64,000 bases of DNA, taken from Vampirovibrionales bacterium. Lineage in GTDB: Bacteria; Cyanobacteriota; Vampirovibrionia; Vampirovibrionales; JAJTHC01. The translations under genes were made by a program, and so were the position numbers. The stretch lies in NCBI GenBank assembly GCA_044358835.1, contig JBIKNF010000010.1:1753-65752 (forward strand). Direction: 5' to 3'. The notes beneath the pieces were generated by a model. It did no database searches and was not told the DNA's origin. It was given only the letters and a program-made list of their open reading frames with translations. This document shows, in pieces, positions 4,323 to 53,988 of the stretch (its first letter is position 1; every line of letters starts with the position of its first letter).

Positions 4323-5309
4323 ATGAAAAAACGCCTTTGTTTATTTGCAGGGTTTGATAAAACAGCCCAAATCCAAGAATACGTTCGTTTTTACGTGCAA
4401 AGTTTGTCTGAATTTTGCGATGTGTATTATTATGCAGATTGTCCTATAGCGGAAGAAGAACTAGGCAAGTTGTCACCCTATGTGAAACAGGCCTTTGCTT
4501 CACGACATGCCAAGTACGATTTTGGTTCATGGCAAGCTTTAATCCAACACCTCGGGTGGGATGTGATTCAACAATACGATGAGCTTATTTTAGCCAATGA
4601 CAGTTGCTACGGCCCCTTGTATGAGTGGGCGCCTGTTTTTGAAAAAATGGATGAAACTCCTTGCGATTTTTGGGGGTTGACCTCTGGCAAAGAGATCAAC
4701 TGGCATTTACAAAGTTATTTTTTAGTGTTTAAGCAGCAAGTATTGCAAAACAACGCCTTTCAACATTTTTGGCAGTCCATACAAAAGCAACCCAACGTTT
4801 CTAAGGTTATTAAGGCCTATGAATTAACTTTGGCGCCCTTATTGCTGAAAGAAAATTTTAAAGCGGGGGCTTATATTGCCCATGAACAAAAAACGACTAA
4901 AATTAAAAACATGACAAGGCTACCTTTTTCTTTGATAAAAGAATTTCAAATGCCTCTTCTGAAAGTAAAAACCTTTACGGAACCTGAACATCATTTAGCC
5001 GAAATGTGCGACGATTGGCAGGCTTTTTTAGCGCGATATACGGACTACCCTGCTCAATTAATTCATCAACATCTCCAAAATTTGAACATAGATTGTGAAA
5101 AAATCAATCAAGAAGCCTTGCTGAGTTGTTGTAAAAAACATCTTTTTGTTCAGTGGGGCTGGTTGTTACTCGTCAAAATAACTAAGCAGGAAAAACTATT
5201 GGTAAAAGTGTGTAAAATTCCGGTTTTAAGTGTACGCCTTTCTAAAGCCTTTATTCTTAAATGTTGTTCTTTGTTGGGCATCACTCAAGAACGTTTAAAT
5301 GTCGTATAA
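4323..5309 (+). CDS. Hypothetical protein, possibly a rhamnan-synthesis-F (RgpF)-like glycosyltransferase-associated protein
   Basis: Uninterrupted 328-aa ORF. The WGLTSGKEINWHLQSYFLVFK region is reminiscent of the RgpF family. The functional call is weak. Confidence 0.4.
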   Translation: MKKRLCLFAGFDKTAQIQEYVRFYVQSLSEFCDVYYYADCPIAEEELGKLSPYVKQAFASRHAKYDFGSWQALIQHLGWDVIQQYDELILANDSCYGPLYEWAPVFEKMDETPCDFWGLTSGKEINWHLQSYFLVFKQQVLQNNAFQHFWQSIQKQPNVSKVIKAYELTLAPLLLKENFKAGAYIAHEQKTTKIKNMTRLPFSLIKEFQMPLLKVKTFTEPEHHLAEMCDDWQAFLARYTDYPAQLIHQHLQNLNIDCEKINQEALLSCCKKHLFVQWGWLLLVKITKQEKLLVKVCKIPVLSVRLSKAFILKCCSLLGITQERLNVV

Positions 5310-5518: not shown

Positions 5519-6376
5519 TTGTTAGATCCACTTGAAGTACGTTCCGCCTTTATTGAGTGTTTTAAAGCCCATGACATTAGGAGCATGTTTCACTATATTG
5601 CGTTGCCTAATTTGCCAGCAGGCCTAAAATGTGACTTGCCCTTAGATGCTTTAAATGCTATTATTTACCATGGTTTTAGAAGCGGTGTTTTAGTGCCTAA
5701 CCCCAGTTCAATGAAAGCGTTTTGTGTGATTAGTTTCATTTCTTTTACAAACACTGGGAGCTCTCAAAGGGCTTTGAATGCTTCTAAACCTGCCCCCCCC
5801 CCCCCGCCAACTGCATCGATCATTTGGGGTAAGCCAACCGTTACAGCTTTTTTATATAAGGTGGAAATGAATAAGGCCTGCCATCAAACCAGCCTATTTT
5901 ATAGTATTCTAAAACAAATTGATGATCAAAAAACAGCACTTTACATTGACGGTTTTGAAAGTCAAACGTCTGTTCCCTATTCAAGACTATTCGGACCAGT
6001 TCTTAAATCATTAAATGTCTCCGCAGACGACTTCCAAGCTTTTGCACAGTATTATATCTCTCTAAAAGAAGAATCACTTAAAGATGGTGCGCTTCGGCAA
6101 GAACTCGTTAGGCAATATCTTAAAATCTCTGGGCGCCTACAACGCCGAATCGGTGATGAACGATATAGCACTTTAAAAAATCATGCGGGTATTTTAAAAC
6201 GTGTTGTTTTAAATTTAATGAATGTCCAAATGCGGACGAGAGTGATTGCTTTTACCCCTCAACTTTTAGATCTTCTGTTAGAAGGCGTAGATCTCACCCT
6301 TTTAAAAAAACAAGTCCAGTTAATAGATGCAATGAAACAAAGAGTTGCCTCTATCGTAGATGCTATGCGGGCTTAA
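5519..6376 (+). CDS. Hypothetical protein containing a poly-proline stretch encoded by a C13 homopolymer
   Basis: 285-aa ORF. Nucleotides 5793-5805 are thirteen consecutive C residues inside the frame (APPPPPTAS). The start and the reality of the N-terminal part are uncertain. Confidence 0.4.
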   Translation: MLDPLEVRSAFIECFKAHDIRSMFHYIALPNLPAGLKCDLPLDALNAIIYHGFRSGVLVPNPSSMKAFCVISFISFTNTGSSQRALNASKPAPPPPPTASIIWGKPTVTAFLYKVEMNKACHQTSLFYSILKQIDDQKTALYIDGFESQTSVPYSRLFGPVLKSLNVSADDFQAFAQYYISLKEESLKDGALRQELVRQYLKISGRLQRRIGDERYSTLKNHAGILKRVVLNLMNVQMRTRVIAFTPQLLDLLLEGVDLTLLKKQVQLIDAMKQRVASIVDAMRA

Positions 6377-7505
6377 ACCCCGTTTCAATATACTTTAAAA
6401 TGGCGTGATTGGCTTTGGGAAACGGCAGGGCCTTCATCTCTTCTAAAGTCGCCCACTGAAAGGCTTGAGCCGCCTTGAGTTCTAGTTGCGCCATGGGGCT
6501 TTTTAGTGTGCAGTGGTACACATGAAGCGTCACTTTTAAATGCGTGTAGGCATGATCAATGCTCAAGGCATGGCGCCCGACCGCCACATCGACATTCAAT
6601 TCTTCCCTCAGTTCTCGACGCACGGTGTCTTCCAACGATTCTTGCCCTTCTCGTTTTCCTCCGGGGAACTCCCACAAACTAGCCAGCAAGCCTGTTTTAG
6701 GGCGTTTTTGAATAAAATATAAGCCGTCGACATTTTGAATTAACGCCACGCCAATGTGTTTATGGGGAACGGTTTTGGCGGGGGTTTTAATGGGTAAGGT
6801 TTCGACTCGCCCCGCTTTAAAGGCTTGGCATAGTTCGTGCACTGGGCATAGCAAGCATTTGGTGAGTTTTGGGGTACATACGGTGGCTCCCAATTCCATA
6901 ATGGCTTGATTGAAAACATAGGGATTTTCGCTTGTTTCAAGCAATTCGCTAATCCAAGCCCAGTGTTTTTTTTCGGTGGCGGGGAGGTTGATGGGGGCGT
7001 CGTCGTTTAAAAGGCGCGCTAAAATACGCTTGACGTTGCCGTCTAACAATGCCACGCGCTGGCCGTAAGCAAAACTTAGAATGGCGCCTGCGGTGTAGCG
7101 CCCCACGCCTTCTAGGCTTAAAATCCCTTCTTGCGTATCAGGCACCACCCCACCAAAGTCCCGCACGACTCTTTGAGCCGCTTGGTGGAGATGTTTGGCA
7201 CGAGAATAATAGCCCAAGCCTTCCCATGCTTTTAGCACCTCTTCTAAAGAAGCCTTTGCCAAGTCTTCAACCGTGGCAAAACGTTTTAGGAAGCGTTCGT
7301 AATAAGGCATCACGGTGGCTACTTGGGTTTGTTGTAGCATGATTTCAGAAACCCAAATAGCGTAAGGATCTTGCGTTCTTCGCCACGGTAAATCTCGGGC
7401 GTGTTGCACATACCAAGCTTCTAACGCTGGAGCAAAACGGGTTTTGAGTCCTGCTAAAACAGAGGGTGCTTCCGCATATTCACTGGTGGAAGGGGACACA
7501 GGCAT
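6363..7505 (-). CDS. mutY: A/G-specific adenine DNA glycosylase MutY with C-terminal NUDIX-like domain
   Basis: HhH-GPD region IWVSEIMLQQTQV...LGYYSRAKHLHQAA, the 4Fe-4S cysteine cluster CTPKLTKCLLCPVHELC, and a C-terminal MutT-like domain. Its start shares one base with the ndh stop codon. Confidence 0.85.
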   Translation of the reverse strand: MPVSPSTSEYAEAPSVLAGLKTRFAPALEAWYVQHARDLPWRRTQDPYAIWVSEIMLQQTQVATVMPYYERFLKRFATVEDLAKASLEEVLKAWEGLGYYSRAKHLHQAAQRVVRDFGGVVPDTQEGILSLEGVGRYTAGAILSFAYGQRVALLDGNVKRILARLLNDDAPINLPATEKKHWAWISELLETSENPYVFNQAIMELGATVCTPKLTKCLLCPVHELCQAFKAGRVETLPIKTPAKTVPHKHIGVALIQNVDGLYFIQKRPKTGLLASLWEFPGGKREGQESLEDTVRRELREELNVDVAVGRHALSIDHAYTHLKVTLHVYHCTLKSPMAQLELKAAQAFQWATLEEMKALPFPKANHAILKYIETGFKPA

Positions 7506-8845
7506 TAGTCTTGCGTGGTCTTAAAGAACGGCAGCAAATCTTTGGCGATGATGCGGGTGGAACGTTTGCCTGTGACGTAATTCACCCACCAGTTAAAGGT
7601 GACCACGACTCGGTTGTCATGTTCTACTAAGAACATGACATGCACCACTAACCATAAGAACCACGCCATAAAACCGTCAAATTCTAAGCCTTTTACGCTG
7701 GCAACAGCCTTGTTATTGCCAATAATTGCCATGCTTCCCTTGTCTTGGTAAGTAAATTCGGGGACTTCATAGCCATACACTTTGGCTTTAAGCACTTTGG
7801 CCACATGTAACCCACCTTGTGTCGCTGCAGGCGCCACCCCTGGAATAGGATCCCCTGTTTGGGTACCATGCACTTGGTGAGCCAAATCACCCACGACGTA
7901 GATATTGGGGTATTTTTCAGTGGAAAATTCAGGGGTTACGATGACTCGTCCCATGCGGTCACTTTCAGCACCCGTTTTTTCGGCAATTAACTTACCTAAG
8001 GGAGAAGCCCCCACGCCTGCCCCCCATAAAACGGTGTAGGTATCTACATGACGCAATTGTCCGTCACGATCTTTAAGAACCGCGTGTGAATCGGAAAGTT
8101 CTGTCACCATCGTTTTCGTGAGTACTTCAATATTGAGGGATTCTAACGCGTCTTGTGCGGATGCAGACAACACGTCTGAAAAAACCGGTAAGACGCGATC
8201 TAGACCTTCAACCAACATGATTTTAAAGTCGTTTAAGTTGGCGCGTCTGAACTGTCCTTTTAAGGTACGTTGCACCAGCTCGGCTACTGAACCTGCCAGT
8301 TCCACCCCTGTGGGTCCTCCACCTACAACAACAAACGTTAAGTACGCACGACGCAAGGCCTCATCTTCCGTGCGTTCAGCCATTTCAAAGGCTTTTAAGA
8401 TTTTTTCACGAATGCCCAGCGCATCTTCAACACTTTTAAGGCCAGGGGCAAAAGCGGCCCATTCATTTCGGCCAAAATAATGATGCAAACTTCCTGTGGC
8501 GATGACCAAGCTGTCATAGGTCAAATGCCCATCCGTCAATTGGAGTTGTTGAGTCTCTACATCAACGTCTTGAACGTCTGCCATGAATACTGCGGTATTT
8601 TGTTGTTTACGCAAAACGTAACGCAAGGGCGAAGCAACATCAGAAGGAGACAGCATGCCTGTGGCGACTTGGTACAACAACGGTTGAAAGAGGTGGTGAT
8701 TGCGTCTGTCTACCAACGTAACTTTTATTTTAGGGTCATTCGCTAGGGCTTTTACGCAATTTAGGCCTGCAAATCCGCCACCTATGACAACGACGTGATG
8801 ACGAGAATCCTTGTGTTGAGGGTCGTGTGAATGAGTTGTCGTCAT
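7505..8845 (-). CDS. ndh: Type II NADH:quinone oxidoreductase (NDH-2)
   Basis: N-terminal FAD fold VVVIGGGFAGLNCVKAL, a second dinucleotide fold FVVVGGGPTGVELAG, and a C-terminal membrane-anchoring helix. Confidence 0.85.
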   Translation of the reverse strand: MTTTHSHDPQHKDSRHHVVVIGGGFAGLNCVKALANDPKIKVTLVDRRNHHLFQPLLYQVATGMLSPSDVASPLRYVLRKQQNTAVFMADVQDVDVETQQLQLTDGHLTYDSLVIATGSLHHYFGRNEWAAFAPGLKSVEDALGIREKILKAFEMAERTEDEALRRAYLTFVVVGGGPTGVELAGSVAELVQRTLKGQFRRANLNDFKIMLVEGLDRVLPVFSDVLSASAQDALESLNIEVLTKTMVTELSDSHAVLKDRDGQLRHVDTYTVLWGAGVGASPLGKLIAEKTGAESDRMGRVIVTPEFSTEKYPNIYVVGDLAHQVHGTQTGDPIPGVAPAATQGGLHVAKVLKAKVYGYEVPEFTYQDKGSMAIIGNNKAVASVKGLEFDGFMAWFLWLVVHVMFLVEHDNRVVVTFNWWVNYVTGKRSTRIIAKDLLPFFKTTQD

Positions 8846-8901: not shown

Positions 8902-8911
8902 GGGGGGGGGG
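8902..8911. repeat. G10 homopolymeric tract in the divergent intergenic region between ndh (-) and the gtrA-like gene (+)
   Basis: tggggggggggt read directly, about 55 bp upstream of the ndh start codon. Confidence 0.9.
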
Positions 8912-14485: not shown

Positions 14486-16771
14486 ATGACGTTTTCTTTC
14501 CCTTCCTTTCCCAATCCTCGTTCTATTCAAAAGCATCTATCTTTCAAAGGGTTTCACTATGGTTGGGTGCCTTTCGTTGCAATGGCACTCACTCTAGGCC
14601 TCTTTAATCCTTTTATGAACTTGCTATTGCCTCAGGCTTCAGCAACCAATTACCCTGTTTCTATTTTACCGACTGAAAATATAGCACGCCCAGCGGTGAG
14701 TATCTTTAAGGGTATTAAGGTGGCTCCAGATTATGCTCGCGTGGATTTAAACTTGAGAAATACTAGTATTGTTGATATTTTACAATTACTGGCGGAACAA
14801 GGACATTTTAATATCATTGTGGACGAATCAGTCACAGGAGTCATGACAGTCGATATTAAAAATATCAGTGTCAATAAAGCCTTGGAATACATTTTTATTA
14901 CAGGTGGATTGAGCTATACCCAAGAAGGGAATACCCTTGTTGTGGCGAATACGGCGACGACCAATGCCCGTTCTTTAAATGCAAAAATCTTTAAAGTGAT
15001 TCCGATTAAATATAGAGATGCGGGGCAGGTTTCCACCCAACTGAATCAAACCATTTTTGCGGCGAATAAACCGGGTACGAATAATATGGCGGTAGCCACC
15101 TTTGACCCGAATACCAATAGCTTATTAGTGGTGGCGACGGATCGTGAAGTGGCGTTGATTGAAGAGCTTTTGCCACAACTAGATTTGCCTCGTAACCGTA
15201 AAGTTTTTAAAATTATGCATGGTAATGAAACAGCAATTGCTCTTTCTGTTTTTACGACCCTTACCGCTGGCTGGGCAAGTAATTCAGCTGGTGGTGCAGC
15301 AGGCGGTGCAGCTGGTGGTGCAGCTGGTGGTGCAGCTGGTGGTGCAGCTGGTGGTGCAGCAGGCGGTGCAGCTGGTGGTGCAGCAGGCGGTGCAGCTGGT
15401 GGCGCAGCAGGCGGTGCAGCTGGTGGTGCAGCAGGCGGAGCAGCAGGCGGTGCAGCTGGTGGTGCAGCAGGCGGAGCAGCTGGTGGTGCAGCAGGCGGAG
15501 CGGCTGGTGGCGCAGCAGGAGGAGCGGCTGGCGGAGCAGCAGGAGGAGCGGCTGGCGGAGCAGCAGGAGGAGCGGCTGGCGGTGGGCAGTCTTTTCAAAG
15601 AGGTGGTTTTTCAATGGTGCCAAACCATGCCACAGGTACGGTAACGGTGTATGGCACCCCTGAACAATTACAATTGGTGGAAGAATTGATTCATGAACTA
15701 GATGTGGCTCGTCCCCAAGTAATGATTGAACTTTCTTTGATCGAACTGAGCAAATCCAACACAAAAGTCATCCAACCCATTACGAGTGGTCCGATTGGGT
15801 TTGGCGAGTTTCAAATCGCCACATTTACAGGTTCACCTTTTACATATGGAGGTAGAGCCTTAGGTATTTTAGGGGGTGGATCTAATAACGGATCGGTCGG
15901 TAAGTTTCGACTACCAGGGATAGGGTTTAACTTTAACAATAACGACACCAAAGCAAAAATTTTAGCGAATCCCACCCTTATTGCGGTGGATGGCACCACT
16001 TCTTCGGTTAGCATTACTGATACGATTGTATACTTTACGTCAACAACGACCGTGCCTGCCGCTGGAGTACCTACGGTAACGTGGCAAGCCAATAACCAAG
16101 AAGTCGGAATTAAACTTGAATTAACCCCAGTGATTACCAATGATGGTAATGTGACCATGGCACTCAAACCTTCAGTAACTCAACTGATCTCGCTGAAAGA
16201 AGGGGGAGGTGGTGCGGTAAGTGCTCCTGAAATTGCCACACGTGAGTTTACGATTGCGTCTGCTCGAGTAAAAGATGGGCAAACTCTTGCCATTGGGGGC
16301 TTGTTAAGAGATACGCGCAATGAATCATGGGACAAAATACCAGGACTCGCTAACTTACCCATTGTAGGAGCCATGTTCCGTTCCACGACTTCTGCGGGTA
16401 ACACGACCCAACGAACGGAACTCGTCGTTTTGGTCACGCCTCACATTCTAAAAGAAGAAGTGAACTCGCCTTACTTTGACGGTGACCCCAAACCCGCTTC
16501 CGATTCTGATGCGTTAACGGTGCCTCAACATGGAAGAACTGGTACACCCCTCGCTCCTTCAGAAGTAAAAGTGATGGGCGAAAAAGGTGGGGAACTTAAG
16601 ATAGAAACCGGTCGTTTGGTCATGCCCGAACCCCAAGCCCCTAAAAGTAGTGAAAAACTGGAAAGATCTGTCAAACGTAAGCAGGCAAAAATGGAAGACC
16701 CTTATAGTGTGACGCCTTATAATGACTACATAGGTGGCCTCAATCGTAACTTTGGTAGTAATTTCAAGTAA
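14486..16771 (+). CDS. gspD: Type II secretion system secretin GspD containing a 105-aa (AGGA)n low-complexity insert
   Basis: N-terminal secretin N domains, then the conserved C-terminal secretin domain (ANPTLIAVDG...VTPHI). The insert is encoded by the tandem DNA repeat at about 15284-15598. Confidence 0.8.
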   Translation: MTFSFPSFPNPRSIQKHLSFKGFHYGWVPFVAMALTLGLFNPFMNLLLPQASATNYPVSILPTENIARPAVSIFKGIKVAPDYARVDLNLRNTSIVDILQLLAEQGHFNIIVDESVTGVMTVDIKNISVNKALEYIFITGGLSYTQEGNTLVVANTATTNARSLNAKIFKVIPIKYRDAGQVSTQLNQTIFAANKPGTNNMAVATFDPNTNSLLVVATDREVALIEELLPQLDLPRNRKVFKIMHGNETAIALSVFTTLTAGWASNSAGGAAGGAAGGAAGGAAGGAAGGAAGGAAGGAAGGAAGGAAGGAAGGAAGGAAGGAAGGAAGGAAGGAAGGAAGGAAGGAAGGAAGGAAGGAAGGAAGGGQSFQRGGFSMVPNHATGTVTVYGTPEQLQLVEELIHELDVARPQVMIELSLIELSKSNTKVIQPITSGPIGFGEFQIATFTGSPFTYGGRALGILGGGSNNGSVGKFRLPGIGFNFNNNDTKAKILANPTLIAVDGTTSSVSITDTIVYFTSTTTVPAAGVPTVTWQANNQEVGIKLELTPVITNDGNVTMALKPSVTQLISLKEGGGGAVSAPEIATREFTIASARVKDGQTLAIGGLLRDTRNESWDKIPGLANLPIVGAMFRSTTSAGNTTQRTELVVLVTPHILKEEVNSPYFDGDPKPASDSDALTVPQHGRTGTPLAPSEVKVMGEKGGELKIETGRLVMPEPQAPKSSEKLERSVKRKQAKMEDPYSVTPYNDYIGGLNRNFGSNFK
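15284..15598 (+). repeat. Tandem 12/24-nt repeat array (gctggtggtgca gcaggcggtgca)n, about 26 x 12 nt, in frame inside gspD
   Basis: Read directly. The repeat encodes AGGAAGGA... and produces the three overlapping artefactual ORFs on both strands in the track. Confidence 0.9.
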
Positions 16772-34863: not shown

Positions 34864-35715
34864 TTAGTTGGCCGACGGCTTATTTAAAGGGCTAAAGTAC
34901 TCGGGAAAGTTTTCTTTGGCTTGGCGTAGGGTAAGGTCTCGACCCGCTTGGTTTAAAATAGCGCGGTTGCGTCGATTGGTTTCGACTTGACGTTTTTCCG
35001 CTTCTGGCGAATGACGATATGCGGAATACACGATCCCTGCAGCTGAACCTAGTCCCATTAAGAGCGGGAACCACTTAGAAAATAACGGTCGTTCGCCTTC
35101 AAGAACTGCACGTGCTTGTAGGTGTTTGAAGCCCGCCAAGGCATGATGTAAATCAGCCACAGACGCATTCGTATTGGCTCGAATACGGGTCAGTATGGCT
35201 TTGGCTTCGTTCGACAAGGATTTATCCTTCAAAGCGGTGGTGATTTCACCCCACAACTCATTTTTTGATGTTTCTTCGGGTATGGAGGCTAAATTGGTAT
35301 GGCTATGGGCTTCGGCACTTAATCTTTGATAGTCATACCTATTGGTGAATCTTTGATAGGCATTGTCAAGCAGTGTGAAAACTCCCGCAAGCAACATTCC
35401 ATCAATAAAAGCGAACACAAAGCTTTGTTTTTCAACAAGTTCTTTCGCTTTTTGAGGGTTGCCGACCTGTTCAGACAAGAACATATCAGCAGATAAATAC
35501 GGCTTGCCCACTTGTGTGGCTTCTCGTTGGGTTAAGGCTTCGTTCAAGCGTTTTTGGGCATCCCGCTGGGGGCTGTGGATGGATTCAACTGGTGAAGAGG
35601 GTTCAAGCATCACAAACACGGTGGTTTCTTCTTCGCTAAAGGCATTTGGGGCGCGATCTGCGGAAGGTAAAGCCGTAGACGGTTGAACGCGAGAAGCAAC
35701 AGCGGGAAACAACAT
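34864..35715 (-). CDS. Hypothetical membrane-associated protein
   Basis: 283-aa ORF with internal hydrophobic helices (FAFIDGMLLAGVFTLL; WFPLLMGLGSAAGIVYSAY). Confidence 0.4.
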   Translation of the reverse strand: MLFPAVASRVQPSTALPSADRAPNAFSEEETTVFVMLEPSSPVESIHSPQRDAQKRLNEALTQREATQVGKPYLSADMFLSEQVGNPQKAKELVEKQSFVFAFIDGMLLAGVFTLLDNAYQRFTNRYDYQRLSAEAHSHTNLASIPEETSKNELWGEITTALKDKSLSNEAKAILTRIRANTNASVADLHHALAGFKHLQARAVLEGERPLFSKWFPLLMGLGSAAGIVYSAYRHSPEAEKRQVETNRRNRAILNQAGRDLTLRQAKENFPEYFSPLNKPSAN

Positions 35716-35805: not shown

Positions 35806-37095
35806 CTAGTCAAGTAGATCAAAGATTCCTCCGAGGTTTCTTTGGGTGTAACGCAACTTGCGCAAGGCCAGGTTTTCAGTTAGACTAATTTTGTCTTTAC
35901 CACAGTTCATTTCTTTCGCTATTTGTTCAAGCGTCTTTGGATCCTCTCCATCTAGTCCAAAACGCTTTTTTAAAACAACCTGCTCTTTTTCTGATAAAGA
36001 CTCCAGGGCTTTTGCTAGCTTTTCCTTCAATTCAAGCATTGACAAGGGTTCAACCTCATCTGGCATTGTTGCACGAATTAATTCCAAAAGGGGCGTTTCG
36101 CTACCAGCCATTGGTGCATCTAACGAGACGGTTTTAAGACTAAAAGCTTCTCCCACCTCTTCTAGCCCCTTTGCGTTCCATCTACCCTTTGGGTCTGTCT
36201 GCTGTAAATGTTCAAGCAGTTCGCTAGGAGTAGGAGCTTGACCAAGTTCCTTCCGTAATGTAGTTGTTGCTTTGCAGATTTTAGACCATTTTGCGGGCAT
36301 ATGAACAGGAAGCCGAATCGTACGGGCTTGATTCGCAATGCCACGCGTAATGCCTTGTCGGATCCACCAATAGGCATAGGTTGAAAACTTATAGCCCATT
36401 GTGGCGTTAAACTTTTCCGCGGCACGGCTTAGGCCTAAATTACCTTCTTGAATCAGGTCTAGGTAGTCTAGCCCCTTACCCCGATATTCTTTTGCGACAG
36501 ACACCACCAAGCGTAAATTGGCCTTTATCATGCGAACATGCGCCCGCTTGGCGGCTCGAACTATTCTAGCCTGTTTTTGGCTTAACGTTGGACGACTAGA
36601 TACATTATTGTTCGCACGGTATGCTTTAAGTATATCGTCTAATTCTGGATTTTTGATTACTTTACCTTTAGAGTCCAGAATTTCGCCTAATTCCGTTTTA
36701 AGTTCGTCAAGGTATGCTTTAAGTAAAGCAGTAAATCCTGGATTTTCGATTTCTCCTTTCTCGGAGCTTAGATTTGGGCTTATTTGCGTTCTAAGATCTA
36801 GGAGGATTTTCTCCCCCGCCTGGATTTGGTGAGCCAACTCAATTTCTTCGGCAGGCGTAAGCAACGGCACACGCCCTATTTCTCTGAGAAAGTCTCCAAC
36901 ATTCTCACCCCAAGTTCTTTTATTCCCAGTTCTTTGGGTGGGGGTAAAACAATCCGTCGCAGGATTTTTAAAGCCCCCTTGAGATCTACTGGTCAGTTGG
37001 GTTGGGTTGGGTTGGGTTGGGTTGGGTTGGGTTGGGTTGACTGGACTGGACTGGACTGGGGAAACACCCCACCTATAAAGTAGTTGTAGCATCAT
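35806..37095 (-). CDS. Sigma-70 family RNA polymerase sigma factor, a divergent paralogue with an N-terminal repeat region and an insertion between regions 1.2 and 2
   Basis: Region 1.2 (FLREIGRVPLLTPAEEIELA), region 2 ([51 protein letters not shown]) and region 4 (LSEKEQVVLKKRFGL...LRKL). Strong similarity to the adjacent sigma gene. The N-terminus, VNPTQPNPTQPNPTQ, is encoded by pentanucleotide repeats. Confidence 0.75.
   Translation of the reverse strand: MMLQLLYRWGVSPVQSSPVNPTQPNPTQPNPTQLTSRSQGGFKNPATDCFTPTQRTGNKRTWGENVGDFLREIGRVPLLTPAEEIELAHQIQAGEKILLDLRTQISPNLSSEKGEIENPGFTALLKAYLDELKTELGEILDSKGKVIKNPELDDILKAYRANNNVSSRPTLSQKQARIVRAAKRAHVRMIKANLRLVVSVAKEYRGKGLDYLDLIQEGNLGLSRAAEKFNATMGYKFSTYAYWWIRQGITRGIANQARTIRLPVHMPAKWSKICKATTTLRKELGQAPTPSELLEHLQQTDPKGRWNAKGLEEVGEAFSLKTVSLDAPMAGSETPLLELIRATMPDEVEPLSMLELKEKLAKALESLSEKEQVVLKKRFGLDGEDPKTLEQIAKEMNCGKDKISLTENLALRKLRYTQRNLGGIFDLLD
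36997..37059 (-). repeat. Two adjacent pentanucleotide microsatellites, (TTGGG)8.6 followed by (ACTGG)4 on the plus strand, i.e. (CCCAA)n(CCAGT)n in the coding sense, inside codons 12-33 of the sigma-factor ORF
   Basis: Counted directly: eight full TTGGG units at 36997-37036 plus a partial ttg; four ACTGG units at 37040-37059. Confidence 0.95.
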
Positions 37096-37220
37096 GAAAA
37101 AAGCACCTATATTTCATCAAGAGAAAAGTAACACGCCTTGTAAAAATAACAAGCCTACATATGCTAGCACCCACCCTCTTTCAAGACAAGCCAGACTTTG
37201 CCAAGGGTGGGTGTGTTTTT

Positions 37221-38270
37221 TTATTCAATATATTCCCGAAGGCGACGACTTCGGTTGGGGTGACGCAACTTACGCAAGGCCTTGGCTTCAATCTGACGAA
37301 TGCGTTCACGCGTGACGCCAAACAATTGCCCCACTTCTTCAAGCGTGCGTTGACGGCCGTCATCCAGTCCAAAACGCAAACGCAACACATCTCGCTCCCG
37401 CAAGGAAAGTCCTGCCAAGACTTCGGTTAAATCTTCACGCAACAATTCATGAGCCACGCTTTGAGCGGGGGCTTCAGCTTCACGATCTTCAATAAAATCA
37501 CCCAAACGCGAATCTTCTTCTTTACCAATCGGTGTTTCAAGCGACAATGGTTCTTGAGCGACTTTGATAATTTCACGCAACTTGTTAATCGAAATCGTCA
37601 TGCTGGCAGCGAGCTCTTCTTCACTCGGCTTACGACCGAGTTCTTGCGCCAGTTGACGGGTTTTTTTGCGGAGCTTGTTAATCGTTTCCACCATGTGAAC
37701 AGGAATGCGAATCGTACGGGCTTGATCCGCAATGGCGCGGGTAATGGCTTGACGAATCCACCACGTGGCATAGGTTGAAAACTTATAGCCCCGTTCGTGG
37801 TCAAACTTTTCAGCCGCACGAATCAACCCCAAGTTCCCTTCTTGAATTAAATCCAGGAACAACATGCCTCTTCCCACGTATTTTTTCGCAATGGAAACCA
37901 CCAAGCGTAAGTTGGCTTGTACCAATTTCTTTTTGGCTCGTAAGCCACCTTCGCCACCTTCAGCGATTTTACGCGCAAACTCAATTTCTTCGTCCGCCGT
38001 AAGCAGGTTGATTCGCCCAATTTCACGCAGATACATGCGAACAGGGTCGTCTACCACCACGCCTTTGGTGTCTACAGAAAAGTCCACAGTGTCATCATCG
38101 GTATTGGCGAGCATGCTGTTAATCACCACAGGGTTGCCGTGATTAAACAACGAAGCACTTTCATCCTTCATAAAATCATCTAAGCCAACATCATCATGCG
38201 TACTTCGCTCAGAACGATCGATGAGATCAATGAGGGCATCATCACTTTTGGTAGATCGTCGTTTCATCAT
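37221..38270 (-). CDS. Sigma-70 family sigma factor (RpoD/RpoS-like, regions 1.2-4; no region 1.1)
   Basis: [80 protein letters not shown], and a C-terminal [15 protein letters not shown]. 349 aa. Confidence 0.85.
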
Positions 38271-52620: not shown

Positions 52621-53988
52621 CTAATACTGTGGCTTACTTTGCTGTATGGCTTTAGCGATATTTTCTTTTCCTTCGGTGTCCATGTGTTGTGCCATGGCAT
52701 GTAAGAAGGCATTGCCTGTTACGGAAGGATTCTTAAGAGGGGTTGTGGGATTTTTAGCAACCACAGGGGTTGGGGCCTGGGTGATTTTACCGTAGCGTTG
52801 GGCTTGCTTGCGAGCGATCGCTTCTTTGACTCTAAGATTGACGCCTTCTTCAGTAATTAATTCGGACTGTTGAGGAGCATCAGGGGCTGAGACAAATCCC
52901 GTATGCTTCATTCTTTCACGCACCCGATGCAGGGTGTTTTGATGGGTAGGCTTTGGGGGGGGCTTTAAACGACTCGCGTAAGAATCACGGATTGCTTCAG
53001 AAGGTGTGAGTCCCAAGGGCATGCTCGCTTCTGGAATAATAAAGCGTTTATTTGAGTCCAAGGGGTAAGCTTCTAAAGCGTGTGACTTTTTTAATTTACT
53101 CAAGAAAAAGAAACCTATTGTGCTAACGAACAAAAACCCCAAAAGTAAGTTGCTATGTGCTTTTGCCCATTGAACCAGCAACACAAAAAGGGTTTGAAGC
53201 GTTTGACGAATGCTCGTGTCTTCAAGGGTTTCATTTTCTTCATCATCTAGCTCATCAAGGGCATCACTTTCAATGGCAATGGGCATATTGGCAAGGTTTG
53301 GATCATTTTCAAGCAATGAAGACACGCGAGGATGCTTGAGGCTATTGGTGTTTGGATTTAATTCAACAGAAAGATCATCAGTGGCGGGTTGAGACTTTAT
53401 TGAGTGGCTTGTAGAAGTTGAGGGGGTAGTGGGGGGAACTTCAATAGGTGTGGGGATTTTTTTAATTTCGCCACTTTCTATGGCCAAAAACACATCACCC
53501 GCTGAAGCTTTTGACGACTGAAGGGGTTTACTAACTGGGCGAAGCAGTCTTGAGTGCTGTTTAACTAACGTTGCTTGCTTAAACGTATTGGGCGAACGAG
53601 ACTTATTGAGTTCCCGAAAGCCTACAACAGGAAGGGTTAATCCTCTGCCTTCAATCATGAGTTGAAGATGCCCATTGTCTAAATGTTTTACACGAACGTT
53701 GTCAATAGAAGGGGCTTTTTCGTATTGAATGGCAAAGACATTGGAGGTAAGGGTTGTCTCATACAAGTCTAAAACAATTGCTTTACCTTGTTGTTTAGCT
53801 TCATGGCGTAAGGGCGAATCGGTGTGAATGTATAGATTTAAGGTGCCTTGTTCTTCTCGTAAATCCACCCCATTGATATGGCTAATAGCCTGCGCTGAAA
53901 GTGTTGTTGAAATACATATAATGTTCAGTAATACCCAAGCCAAAAATAGAATGGGGTGTTGGCCAAAGAAGATCTTAGGAAAGTTCAT
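52621..53988 (-). CDS. Hypothetical membrane protein with an N-terminal AMIN-like beta domain and long disordered regions
   Basis: Signal or TM segment, a roughly 100-aa beta-rich domain (VDLREEQGTLNLYIHTDSPL...IVLDLYETTL), a second TM helix, and Pro/Lys-rich low-complexity stretches. Confidence 0.4.
   Translation of the reverse strand: MNFPKIFFGQHPILFLAWVLLNIICISTTLSAQAISHINGVDLREEQGTLNLYIHTDSPLRHEAKQQGKAIVLDLYETTLTSNVFAIQYEKAPSIDNVRVKHLDNGHLQLMIEGRGLTLPVVGFRELNKSRSPNTFKQATLVKQHSRLLRPVSKPLQSSKASAGDVFLAIESGEIKKIPTPIEVPPTTPSTSTSHSIKSQPATDDLSVELNPNTNSLKHPRVSSLLENDPNLANMPIAIESDALDELDDEENETLEDTSIRQTLQTLFVLLVQWAKAHSNLLLGFLFVSTIGFFFLSKLKKSHALEAYPLDSNKRFIIPEASMPLGLTPSEAIRDSYASRLKPPPKPTHQNTLHRVRERMKHTGFVSAPDAPQQSELITEEGVNLRVKEAIARKQAQRYGKITQAPTPVVAKNPTTPLKNPSVTGNAFLHAMAQHMDTEGKENIAKAIQQSKPQY

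Follow-up and report, generated by a model that had tools for sequence, protein, structure and literature searches.

Repeat-number variation in a second sigma factor gene of Vampirovibrionales suggests that a master regulator is switched at random

Introduction

Can a bacterium place a sigma factor, the promoter-recognition subunit itself, under a random genetic switch written into its own coding sequence? Microsatellite switches are textbook material for the surface antigens and restriction-modification methyltransferases of host-adapted pathogens. Phase-variable sigma factors described in the literature depend on DNA inversion or rearrangement (PMC7241687, PMC7911514), and our literature search found no microsatellite within a sigma factor gene. 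The question is raised by a 64-kb stretch of Vampirovibrionales DNA, analysed here as a whole and called the window, in which two adjacent pentanucleotide repeats lie at the 5' end of a gene for a second sigma factor, sigma2.

Results

Sigma2 is encoded on the minus strand (35806..37095, 429 aa), and its translation agrees with the one given in an earlier note on this DNA (MMLQLLYRWGVSPVQSSPVNPTQPNPTQPNPTQLTSRS...). On the coding strand, a perfect (CCAGT)4 tract (37040..37059, encoding PVQSS) adjoins a perfect (CAACC)8 tract (37000..37039, encoding NPTQP repeats) with a single CAACT unit directly 3' of it (36999-36995); the two tracts together form codons 13-33 of the 429-aa protein. Tandem Repeats Finder reported period 5 and 100% matches for both, with 8.8 copies of GTTGG at 36996-37039 and 4.2 copies of GACTG at 37039-37059, which bears out the two adjacent microsatellites that the note had placed near 36997-37059. 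The longest perfect period-5 run of the window measures 44 nt, against a maximum of 17 nt over 50 shuffles, and a regular-expression census of the whole window (unit length 2-8 bases, at least 4 copies) returned no other microsatellite, only four 8-nt dinucleotide runs. As is typical of simple-sequence contingency loci, the repeat is perfect, its unit length is not divisible by three and it sits 5' in an open reading frame.

Folded as single-stranded DNA, the repeat tract forms no hairpin or cruciform (MFE 0 kcal/mol). The plus strand of the (CAACC)8 tract reads (GGTTG)n, that is, runs of GGG-TT, and the (GGGTT)8 template strand has candidate G-quadruplex potential. A role of the repeat as a promoter-spacer element was rejected, since some 100 nt separate the -10 element from the tract downstream, and the tract falls within the reading frame.

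The product is a group-2-like sigma-70 paralogue. Pfam gathering scores are passed for region 1.2 (aa 66-96, 49.5 bits), region 2 (aa 189-259, 71.1 bits) and region 4 (aa 363-415, 35.1 bits). The best NCBIfam match is TIGR02997 (Sig70-cyanoRpoD), at 283.5 against a cut-off of 384.5; sigma2 stays below the curated cut-offs of all RpoD, SigB/C/D and RpoS models, and the sole NCBIfam model that it passes is the generic sigma70-ECF superfamily. JGI names a protein of this type 'nonessential primary-like sigma factor'. Membership of the MZA anti-phage system was also considered and discarded, with sigma2 scoring 236 bits for MzaA against a cut-off of 800, and rpoD scoring higher (349). Residues 1-67, which precede the conserved regions, have pLDDT values below 50 in AlphaFold; this N-terminal extension is probably disordered, and an in-frame change in its length should therefore be tolerated.

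The family is very small: an exhaustive representative search found 7 representatives among 1.84 billion and added a single allele, P0172. A scan of genome_contigs yielded only cyanobacterial sigma factors of 33-47% identity, while the left flank, used as an exact pattern, had no match in metagenome_contigs. A peptide-pattern scan with a leader alignment, run on a collection without this clade, found generic sigma factors only. Word-indexed protein searches with the 69-aa leader and the 186-aa N-terminus added no alleles and missed even P0001, which is 96-97% identical.

Immediately upstream, on the same strand, lies a housekeeping-type rpoD (37221..38270, 349 aa; RpoD_Cterm 389.7 bits, cut-off 354). 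Directly after sigma2 follows a gene for a 283-aa predicted membrane protein (34864..35715, minus strand), which has neither a Pfam nor a PADLOC match and is found 3' of sigma2 at every locus, including a relocated one. PADLOC reported no defence systems among the neighbours of sigma2.

How would a change in unit number affect translation? The tandem ATG-ATG at 37090..37095 (minus strand), which we infer to be the main start of sigma2, is kept at all repeat-bearing loci, the relocated copy L173 among them, and no other canonical in-frame start precedes codon 76. An AGGTG ribosome-binding motif (37104..37108, minus strand) begins 13 nt before the ATG, and (A/T)AGG(A/T) from about -13 is the commonest motif upstream of the other ATG-start reading frames of the window. 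The note had also held that no alternative start separates the repeat from region 1.2, and rightly so: there is no in-frame ATG, GTG or TTG between codons 2 and 76, and codon 76, a GTG at 36870, already lies within region 1.2. Downstream of the tract, a TGA (36995-36993) and a TAG (36988-36986), together spanning 36986..36995 on the minus strand, close the two wrong frames within 14 nt. When one or two units were added or removed in simulation, the ATG products shrank to 30-39 aa, as expected from the claim that a single-unit change shifts the frame and truncates the ATG-started protein; with three units added or removed the frame was kept.

About 60 nt upstream of the ATG, a promoter-like site (37161..37189, minus strand) comprises a -35 element TTGTCT (37189-37184), a 17-nt spacer, a TG and a -10 element TAGCAT (37166-37161). 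It is conserved, also at the relocated locus L173; the -35 element is TTGACT in other strains, and the repeat-less relatives L175/L178 carry a promoter-like TTGACT-17-TATACT. A consensus scan did not list the window's site because its hexamers match at 8 of 12 positions and the scan needs 9. The -35 element and the spacer lie in the loop and 3' arm of a hairpin with an 11-bp stem (37168..37213, minus strand, MFE fold) that follows the rpoD stop codon in the rpoD-sigma2 spacer; in L175/L178 the equivalent position is taken by a hairpin of another sequence. A search of the sigma2 leader for known RNA elements gave a single Rfam match, to a snoRNA model with E = 0.6.

To see natural variation at this site, the window was compared with 11 further alleles from metagenomes and metagenome-assembled genomes (MAGs) of one Vampirovibrionales-like clade, at the syntenic locus in which dnaG and rpoD precede sigma2 and, for L173, at the relocated copy. 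These came from JGI (metagenomes 3300059473, 3300043575, 3300045505, 3300050337, 3300042958, 3300034103 and 3300043340), ENA (ERZ28594011, ERZ28593729, ERZ28593266 and ERZ19527687), Logan and NCBI, with runs ERR4869742 and ERR2848570 among the source data; P0004, P0147 and P0172 were available as protein only.

The invariant repeat number that the earlier note had named as counting against a switch is not what the rpoD-linked loci display. Unit totals differ among strains (7, 9, 10, 12 and 13), including by non-multiples of three. Seven of the 11 further alleles keep sigma2 in the ATG-ATG frame, with totals of 7, 10 or 13 units at rpoD-linked loci: next to the 4+9 units of the window stand 4+6 in L081-83, 5+2 in L167/L169 and 6+7 in L172, and L173/L174, P0004 and P0147 are likewise in frame. 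The other four are shifted, namely L084-86 (3+6 units), L168/L170 (10+2), L171 (10+2) and P0172, the three read as DNA having 9, 12 and 12 units. ATG-initiated products in the natural shifted alleles would be 29-34 aa long, yet all shifted alleles have a full-length sigma reading frame (349-441 aa as called). Unit-number polymorphism that includes frame shifts while the rest of the gene stays intact is a further mark of a contingency locus.

Both tracts take part in this variation. CAACC occurs in 8 copies in the window and in L173 and in 5 in L081-86; L172 has (CAACT)6 in its place, and L167-171 have one CAACT plus one CAACC. Of CCAGT there are 4 units in the window, L081 and L167; L084-86 have 3, one of them impure, L172 has 6, and L168/L170/L171 have 9. 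In the most direct comparison, the 5,746-nt alignment of L167 with L168 contains 17 mismatches and one 25-nt gap, equal to 5 CCAGT units. From 783 to 5233 of L168 (about 4.4 kb with rpoD, the spacer, the entire sigma2 gene and more) there is not one substitution, and the 25-nt difference flips the reading frame. Similarly, an in-frame allele with 5+2 units (P0147) and a shifted allele with 10+2 units fall into one 90%-identity cluster, that of L171. Identical alleles were assembled independently from different samples (L081/82/83, L084/85/86, L167/169), and this constancy of the majority allele within one strain implies that switching is not extremely fast. Since dnaG-rpoD at the rpoD-linked loci is only 84-93% identical to the window, most comparisons are between species-level lineages.

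These alleles could also be read as a neutral low-complexity linker, with starts in all three frames (ATG-ATG, GTG1 and GTG2) giving sigma2 whatever the unit number. The earlier note had overlooked two GTG codons just 5' of the tract on the minus strand, GTG1 (37072-37070) and GTG2 (37067-37065), which occupy the other two frames; the tract is open in all three, and the predicted disorder of the N-terminus would suit such a linker. GTG2 is in frame with sigma2 in all four shifted alleles, the JGI and NCBI gene callers begin P0002, P0148 and P0172 there, and GTG1 is replaced by ATG at the relocated locus L173. Against this, the AGGTG-like motif read from the sequence before GTG2 starts just 7 nt ahead of the codon instead of at the usual -13, which probably makes GTG2 a poor start. 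GTG2 is moreover situated within the path read by ribosomes from the ATG, and GTG1 lacks such a motif altogether. A neutral linker should also populate all three frames, yet the third is found in none of the 11 alleles and the ATG frame in seven. Even with several starts in use, phase would still determine the N-terminus and probably the yield, much as happens in licA with its alpha/beta and gamma starts (PMC2212159). We consider the neutral linker unlikely.

What the GTG codons do change is the nature of the proposed switch. That all shifted alleles share the GTG2 frame suggests, weakly (P about 0.1-0.25, with 3-4 independent events), that this phase may retain expression, and the switch may thus be high/low rather than on/off. 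The phase-variable sigma factor of the earlier note gains from strain alleles that flip the frame, while its 'off' state may have to be read as 'low', by way of GTG2.

Frameshifted alleles might alternatively be early pseudogenes of a decaying, dispensable paralogue, with no reversible switch. Sigma2 does evolve fast: between strains, dN/dS is 0.4-1.2 for its N-terminal part and around 1 or higher for its C-terminal part, as against 0.01-0.03 for rpoD. In the window protein the region 4.2 helix is atypical (CGKDKISLTENLALRKLR) and region 3 (Sigma70_r3) has no Pfam match; region 3 is detected in homologues with the other C-terminal type. Decay, however, would hardly leave every allele open for 317-434 codons from region 1.2 at a synonymous divergence of 0.2-0.7, nor retain the region 2 invariants in every family member, nor keep the tracts perfect, and in L168 the 25-nt unit change is the sole lesion. 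In addition, the C-terminal halves of L084 and L171 differ by 38 nonsynonymous changes and 1 synonymous change (P = 2.8e-4), an excess that indicates positive selection and not neutrality. Taken together, decay appears a poor explanation with little chance of being right.

The same sigma3-sigma4 half has been swapped between strains. A diversity-generating retroelement was rejected as the source of the nonsynonymous excess: the window holds no template copy of the C-terminal half, and a search with that half matched only rpoD region 2 (77%) and, over a short stretch, rpoD region 1.2. The idea that the downstream membrane protein acts as an anti-sigma factor, co-varying with the sigma3-sigma4 type, was also dropped, as no co-variation was seen; the downstream gene of L084 is 89% identical to that of the window, yet its sigma2 C-terminus is of the other type.

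Slightly less probable again is a true start downstream of the repeat, at GTG 36870 or at a Met before region 1.2, the ATG-repeat segment then being a leader reading frame that tunes translation. Prodigal-type callers picked a downstream GTG for P0005 and P0007, NCBI picked a GTG before region 1.2 for P0008, and an AGGG motif begins 8 nt before GTG 36870. A start at 36870 would nevertheless leave region 1.2 (aa 66-96) without aa 66-75, roughly one third of its length. The stretch that links the repeat to region 1.2 is also conserved as protein: its motif TDCFTPTQRTG (aa 47-57; 36925..36957, minus strand) has D, F, P, T, Q, R and G invariant in all family members, including repeat-less ones, and is conserved in 45%-identical relatives with codon differences some of which are synonymous (CCC/CCA, ACC/ACA). 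In the repeat-less relatives L175-178 the same extension with this motif is encoded from an ATG at the equivalent place, as one reading frame with no alternative start, and its retention without the repeat in these more distant relatives argues that the tract is coding. The earlier note had allowed that a mapped downstream start would put the repeats in the 5' UTR; no start codon of this kind exists in the clade, and the ribosome-binding motif at -13, the conserved promoter and the retained extension speak against one. An in-frame Met just before region 1.2, absent from the window clade, could allow repeat-independent translation in the P0003/P0004 and L167-170 clades.

Finally, that the unit differences are assembly or sequencing artefacts is the least credible reading: the comparison sequences are all metagenome contigs or MAGs, in which co-occurring close strains can yield chimeric contigs, and L172 has a broken rpoD call, but the tracts (35-65 nt) probably fit within one read of current short-read platforms, identical alleles came from independent samples and assemblers (JGI, ENA, Logan, NCBI), and length differences are exact multiples of 5 nt.

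Discussion

The best explanation, and one that we hold to be probable on the strength of the compared alleles, is a hypermutable coding repeat that switches sigma2 between a high and an off or low state. Mechanistically, sigma2 would be a non-essential, group-2-like sigma factor whose disordered N-terminal extension contains both tracts, acting together as one such repeat. Slipped-strand gain or loss of units at replication, putatively frequent and reversible within a clone, would change the tract length in steps of 5 nt. ATG-ATG would share the frame of regions 1.2-4 only at totals equal to 1 modulo 3 (7, 10 and 13 at the rpoD-linked locus). With any other total, ribosomes started at the ATG would stop at the TGA or TAG within 14 nt of the tract, releasing a peptide of about 30 aa, and sigma2 would be absent or, in one of these two phases, made at a low level from the badly spaced in-frame GTG. 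A population would then be a mix of sigma2-high and sigma2-off/low cells, and the genes transcribed by sigma2 would be expected to vary accordingly.

Swapping and positive selection of the sigma3-sigma4 half make the locus resemble a phasevarion built on a sigma factor. Such a 'sigma-factor phasevarion', in which a pentanucleotide switch acts on a sigma2 whose sigma3-sigma4 half is recombined and positively selected, is an idea that we put forward only tentatively, at somewhat less than even chances. If it holds, each Vampirovibrionales-like lineage would be hedging its bets on a fast-evolving regulon of its own, and an arms race against phage, prey or an anti-sigma partner might lie behind this. 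More generally, a true switch would mean that nature has taken the most direct way to make a regulon phase-variable, which is to switch the subunit that recognizes promoters. Its setting would be uncultured, non-photosynthetic environmental relatives of cyanobacteria and not a pathogen, and it would be coupled to rapid diversification of DNA-recognition domains, much like modA/modB alleles.

Among its relatives, sigma2 shares regions 1.2, 2 and 4 with the cyanobacterial group 2 sigma factors (RpoD/SigA-like, non-essential; TIGR02997). It differs from them in its disordered N-terminal extension of about 65 aa with the repeat, in an insert of about 90 aa between regions 1.2 and 2, and in a divergent, fast-evolving sigma3-sigma4 half.

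Among known switches, the opa genes of Neisseria use the unit number of a repeat to set the reading frame of the mature protein. As in sigma2, a pentanucleotide repeat lies within the first few dozen codons of diverse, mosaic alleles, in opa as CTCTT coding repeats in the leader-peptide region (PMC13183285). Opa, however, is a surface adhesin with a signal peptide in a host-restricted pathogen, whereas sigma2 is a cytoplasmic transcription factor in which two different units adjoin each other.

In the licA gene of Haemophilus influenzae, CAAT repeats are combined with initiation codons in two frames, alpha/beta and gamma (PMC2212159). There, too, the repeats come right after several starts that differ in frame, two of them standing in tandem in a single frame, and the repeat count selects which start, if any, is in frame, so that three phases are possible, as for sigma2. 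The licA unit is a tetranucleotide and its target a choline kinase for LPS decoration; its switching has been measured at about 1e-2 to 1e-3 per generation, whereas that of sigma2 is predicted from alleles.

Sigma factors active in part of a clonal population, with a bimodal regulon as would hold for sigma2, are represented by C. difficile SigD, whose heterogeneity stems from the invertible flgB switch (PMC7241687), and by S. aureus SigH, through gene duplication or 5'UTR control (PMC7911514). These rely on site-specific inversion upstream of the operon or on rearrangement, and have no microsatellite inside the sigma reading frame.

Phasevarions, driven by phase-variable Type III mod genes such as Neisseria modB with its CCCAA repeats (PMC5149525, PMC5909438), come close in design. 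Sigma2 does not belong to this class, as its gene encodes a sigma factor and no methyltransferase or restriction partner is present; Mod is a DNA methyltransferase that acts epigenetically, whereas sigma2 acts on RNA polymerase. CCCAA is nonetheless CAACC by rotation and likewise lies within the reading frame of a global regulator, and in both cases it is the DNA-recognition part that differs between alleles, the remainder being conserved, and one switch is predicted to move many genes.

Two pentanucleotide tracts at the start of a second sigma-70 gene

Tandem Repeats Finder places two adjoining period-5 arrays at 36996-37039 (8.8 copies) and 37039-37059 (4.2 copies), both 100% pure, confirming the earlier note's description of two abutting pentanucleotide microsatellites in the 5' coding end of a sigma-70 paralogue. 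On the minus strand, which is the coding strand, they read (CCAGT)4 (37059-37040), followed by (CAACC)8 (37039-37000) and then CAACT. The 44 nt of perfect period-5 sequence form the longest such run in the window (at most 17 nt in 50 shuffles), and the 64 kb hold no further microsatellites (unit 2-8, at least 4 copies) except four 8-nt dinucleotide runs.

The repeat-bearing ORF (35806..37095, minus strand, 429 aa) carries Pfam matches to sigma-70 region 1.2 (aa 66-96), region 2 (aa 189-259) and region 4 (aa 363-415), while its top NCBIfam match, the cyanobacterial RpoD/SigA subfamily, stays under cut-off. Since the gene directly upstream (37221..38270, minus strand) is the better RpoD (RpoD_Cterm 389.7 bits versus a cut-off of 354), we assign the ORF to a second, group-2-like sigma factor, here sigma2. 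The insert between its regions 1.2 and 2 contains a 53-nt direct repeat (36610-36661 and 36702-36754, 79% identical; NPGFTALLKAYLDEL / NPELDDILKAYRANN), and so arose in part by duplication.

The ORF opens with ATG-ATG (37095-37090, minus strand), and an AGGTG motif starts 13 nt 5' of it; (A/T)AGG(A/T) at about -13 is the most frequent upstream motif among the window's other ATG-start ORFs. About 60 nt further upstream lies a promoter-like element (TTGTCT, 17-nt spacer, TG, TAGCAT; 37189-37161, minus strand), whose -35 element is TTGACT in other strains. A hairpin after the rpoD stop (37168-37213) encloses this -35 element.

Codons 13-33 are the pentanucleotide tracts. All three frames are open through the tract itself, and the two wrong ones close after it at TGA (36995-36993) and TAG (36988-36986), both on the minus strand. 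Between codon 2 and codon 76 there is no in-frame ATG, GTG or TTG, and codon 76, a GTG at 36870, is already within region 1.2. The earlier statement that no alternative start separates the repeat from region 1.2 is therefore right, but it overlooked a pair of GTGs lying shortly 5' of the tract, one in each other frame: GTG1 (37072-37070) and GTG2 (37067-37065), both on the minus strand.

Other repeats of the window were recorded alongside. A C13 homopolymer (5793-5805, encoding PAPPPPPT) lies inside ORF 5519..6376(+), whose 285-aa protein has no Pfam match and which adjoins an RgpF-type rhamnan synthesis gene (4323..5309); it is another candidate for switching by frameshift, in the context of surface polysaccharide. 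A minus-strand gene for an NDH-2-type oxidoreductase (7505..8845; ATG at 8845) has a G10 run (8902-8911) 57-66 nt 5' of its ATG, and other homopolymers are G8 at 52955 and C8 at 54607. A secretin (PilQ-like) gene (14486..16771) carries, in its N-terminal part, an in-frame, Gly/Ala-rich coding repeat of 24-nt period (15285-15584, 12.5 copies, 93% matches).

A narrow family in a rearranging neighbourhood

Among 5.8 billion clusters, the closest proteins to sigma2 number nine to ten, all from metagenomes and MAGs. Only seven representatives out of 1.84 billion came up when the N-terminal 186 aa were searched exhaustively, which makes this a narrow family. Among its members, P0012 belongs to a MAG that NCBI labels Vampirovibrionales, with 84% identity to the window in dnaG-rpoD. 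On these grounds we place the window in that order-level group of non-photosynthetic relatives of cyanobacteria.

All fetched contigs but one share the gene order dnaG (divergent), rpoD, sigma2 and a membrane protein of 283-308 aa. In one lineage (L173/L174; ERZ28593580, JGI 3300045040), a cassette of promoter, leader with pentanucleotide tracts, sigma2 and 283-aa membrane protein instead follows gidA/mnmG. The promoter-like element is retained in this relocated copy (L173), and the cassette's downstream flank matches that of the window. In the window and contig L171, what comes after the membrane protein also differs from the other strains. Together with the relocated cassette, these differing flanks mark the locus as a rearrangement hotspot. 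The predicted membrane protein itself (34864-35715 in the window, 283 aa) lies 3' of sigma2 at every locus and has no Pfam or PADLOC match; it is fast-evolving (dN/dS 0.3-0.7), and its type does not follow the sigma C-terminal type.

Unit number varies among strains and changes the reading frame

Alleles were described by their units in tract 1 (CCAGT-type) plus tract 2 (CAACC- or CAACT-type). The ATG is in phase with the sigma body in the window (4+9), L081/82/83 (4+6), L167/L169 (5+2) and L172 (6+7), in the proteins P0004 (4+6) and P0147 (5+2), and in the relocated L173/L174, which have a different left tract, (CAACT)3(CAACC)8. It is out of phase in L084/85/86 (3+6; ATG product 29 aa), L168/L170 (10+2; 34 aa), L171 (10+2; also P0148) and P0172, a protein with uncounted units that begins VFPSELNPTQ, in the GTG2 frame. 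Among rpoD-linked copies, the ATG frame thus goes with 7, 10 or 13 units in total, and not with 9 or 12. The comparison of repeat number among strains, proposed earlier as a check, therefore reveals variation that includes frame-shifting changes. In each shifted allele the downstream sigma ORF is intact. The L172 counts deserve slightly less trust, because the gene call split its rpoD (1839-2875) into pieces of 276 aa and 78 aa, which suggests a frameshift or an assembly error.

The simplest reading of these sequences is a classical translational switch. Slippage would alter the unit number, one phase in three would bring the sigma body into frame with the good ATG-ATG, and the two remaining phases would yield a peptide of about 30 aa. 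We consider it probable that sigma2 is truly switched, between high and off or low, and improbable that the variation is functionally neutral. GTG2 could serve one of the other phases: JGI and NCBI gene callers place the protein start there, and the four shifted alleles all share its frame, with none in the third, a bias that is not significant with four alleles. GTG1 is replaced by ATG at the relocated locus. The AGGTG-like motif of GTG2 starts just 7 nt upstream, versus 13, and the codon is located within the ATG-initiated reading path; GTG2 therefore looks weak, and its phase would be expected to give low expression at best.

Contigs L167 and L168 allow tract change to be compared with point mutation: their alignment of 5,746 nt shows 17 mismatches, confined to dnaG and far downstream, and one gap of 25 nt, which is five CCAGT units. 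Zero substitutions separate them across L168 783-5233, a stretch that takes in rpoD, the spacer, all of sigma2 and 0.9 kb past it. Likewise, the 90%-identity cluster of L171 holds 5+2-unit in-frame and 10+2-unit shifted alleles together. Assembly error is an unlikely source of such differences, because identical alleles were assembled independently from several samples by several pipelines and the tracts are 35-65 nt long.

Comparison of strain alleles supports the slipped-strand switch put forward in the earlier note, which is not proven for populations. Samples of one strain agree in their majority allele, so switching would be too slow for consensus sequences to drift.

The tract lies within an older coding extension

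Contigs L175-L178 share the synteny and about 84% identity with the window in dnaG-rpoD. At the homologous place they have no microsatellite, only a weak, degenerate CA-rich periodicity (L175 3051-3076: CAATCAACA, 2.8 copies, 83% matches), which is either a proto-repeat or a decayed repeat. They nonetheless encode a 56-60 aa extension from an upstream ATG. Between tract and region 1.2 sits the motif T(T)D[CH]F[TR]PTQR[TS]G, whose D, F, P, T, Q, R and G are invariant across the family, with some codon differences synonymous. In an AlphaFold model that is poor overall (mean pLDDT 62.6), residues 1-67 of the window protein have pLDDT below 50, which fits a disordered extension tolerating in-frame length change. 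Because the repeat-less relatives encode both extension and motif, the microsatellite is taken to have arisen in one sub-clade, within an ancestral coding extension. Their promoter-like element is TTGACT-17-TATACT. In L175 and L178 a hairpin of different sequence occupies the same place (about 2905-2945) with TTGAC in its loop; it is therefore the architecture of the hairpin, not its sequence, that is conserved.

The DNA-recognition half of sigma2 is diversified

Between the window sigma2 and P0001, identity is 96% over aa 66-265 and 33-36% over regions 3-4; the C-terminal half of the window protein is nearer P0003/P0004 (52-68%). L171 matches the window at 93% across dnaG, rpoD and the N-terminal part of sigma2 and at 97-99% further downstream, yet bears the other C-terminal type. 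The sigma3-sigma4 half (window 35806-36300) is thus exchanged between otherwise close strains. The loci concerned are L081, L084, L171, L172 and L173. No template-repeat copy of a diversity-generating retroelement was found within the window.

By Nei-Gojobori estimates, dN/dS is 0.01-0.03 for rpoD (all pairs except that with L172, whose rpoD call is broken), 0.4-1.2 for the sigma2 N-terminal part and about 0.8-2 for the C-terminal part in pairs with unsaturated dS, with L084/L171 as an outlier. From codon 181 to the end, 38 of the changes between these two are nonsynonymous and 1 is synonymous (P = 2.8e-4 under neutrality); they include R to C in the recognition helix of region 4.2. On this comparative evidence, the DNA-recognition part of sigma2 is probably recombining and positively selected.

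Comparison with known systems

Full-text literature searches returned many repeat-switched methyltransferases and surface genes. In open-access full texts they returned no microsatellite within a sigma factor gene, which does not imply absence elsewhere, and nothing on sigma factors of Vampirovibrionales. Sigma factors are known to vary by other means, by DNA inversion in C. difficile SigD (PMC7241687) and by rearrangement in S. aureus SigH (PMC7911514). The locus is a variation on a known type of switch and no novel type; its interest lies in the choice of target, the environmental lineage and the linked diversification of promoter-recognition domains. Sigma2 resembles H. influenzae licA, where alpha/beta and gamma start codons serve two of three phases, in that its repeat is preceded by start positions in three different frames (PMC2212159). 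Like phasevarion mod genes, it joins a conserved N-terminal part and a recombining, selected DNA-recognition part to a 5' pentanucleotide switch, and the CCCAA unit of Neisseria modB is, by rotation, the CAACC of sigma2 (PMC5149525).
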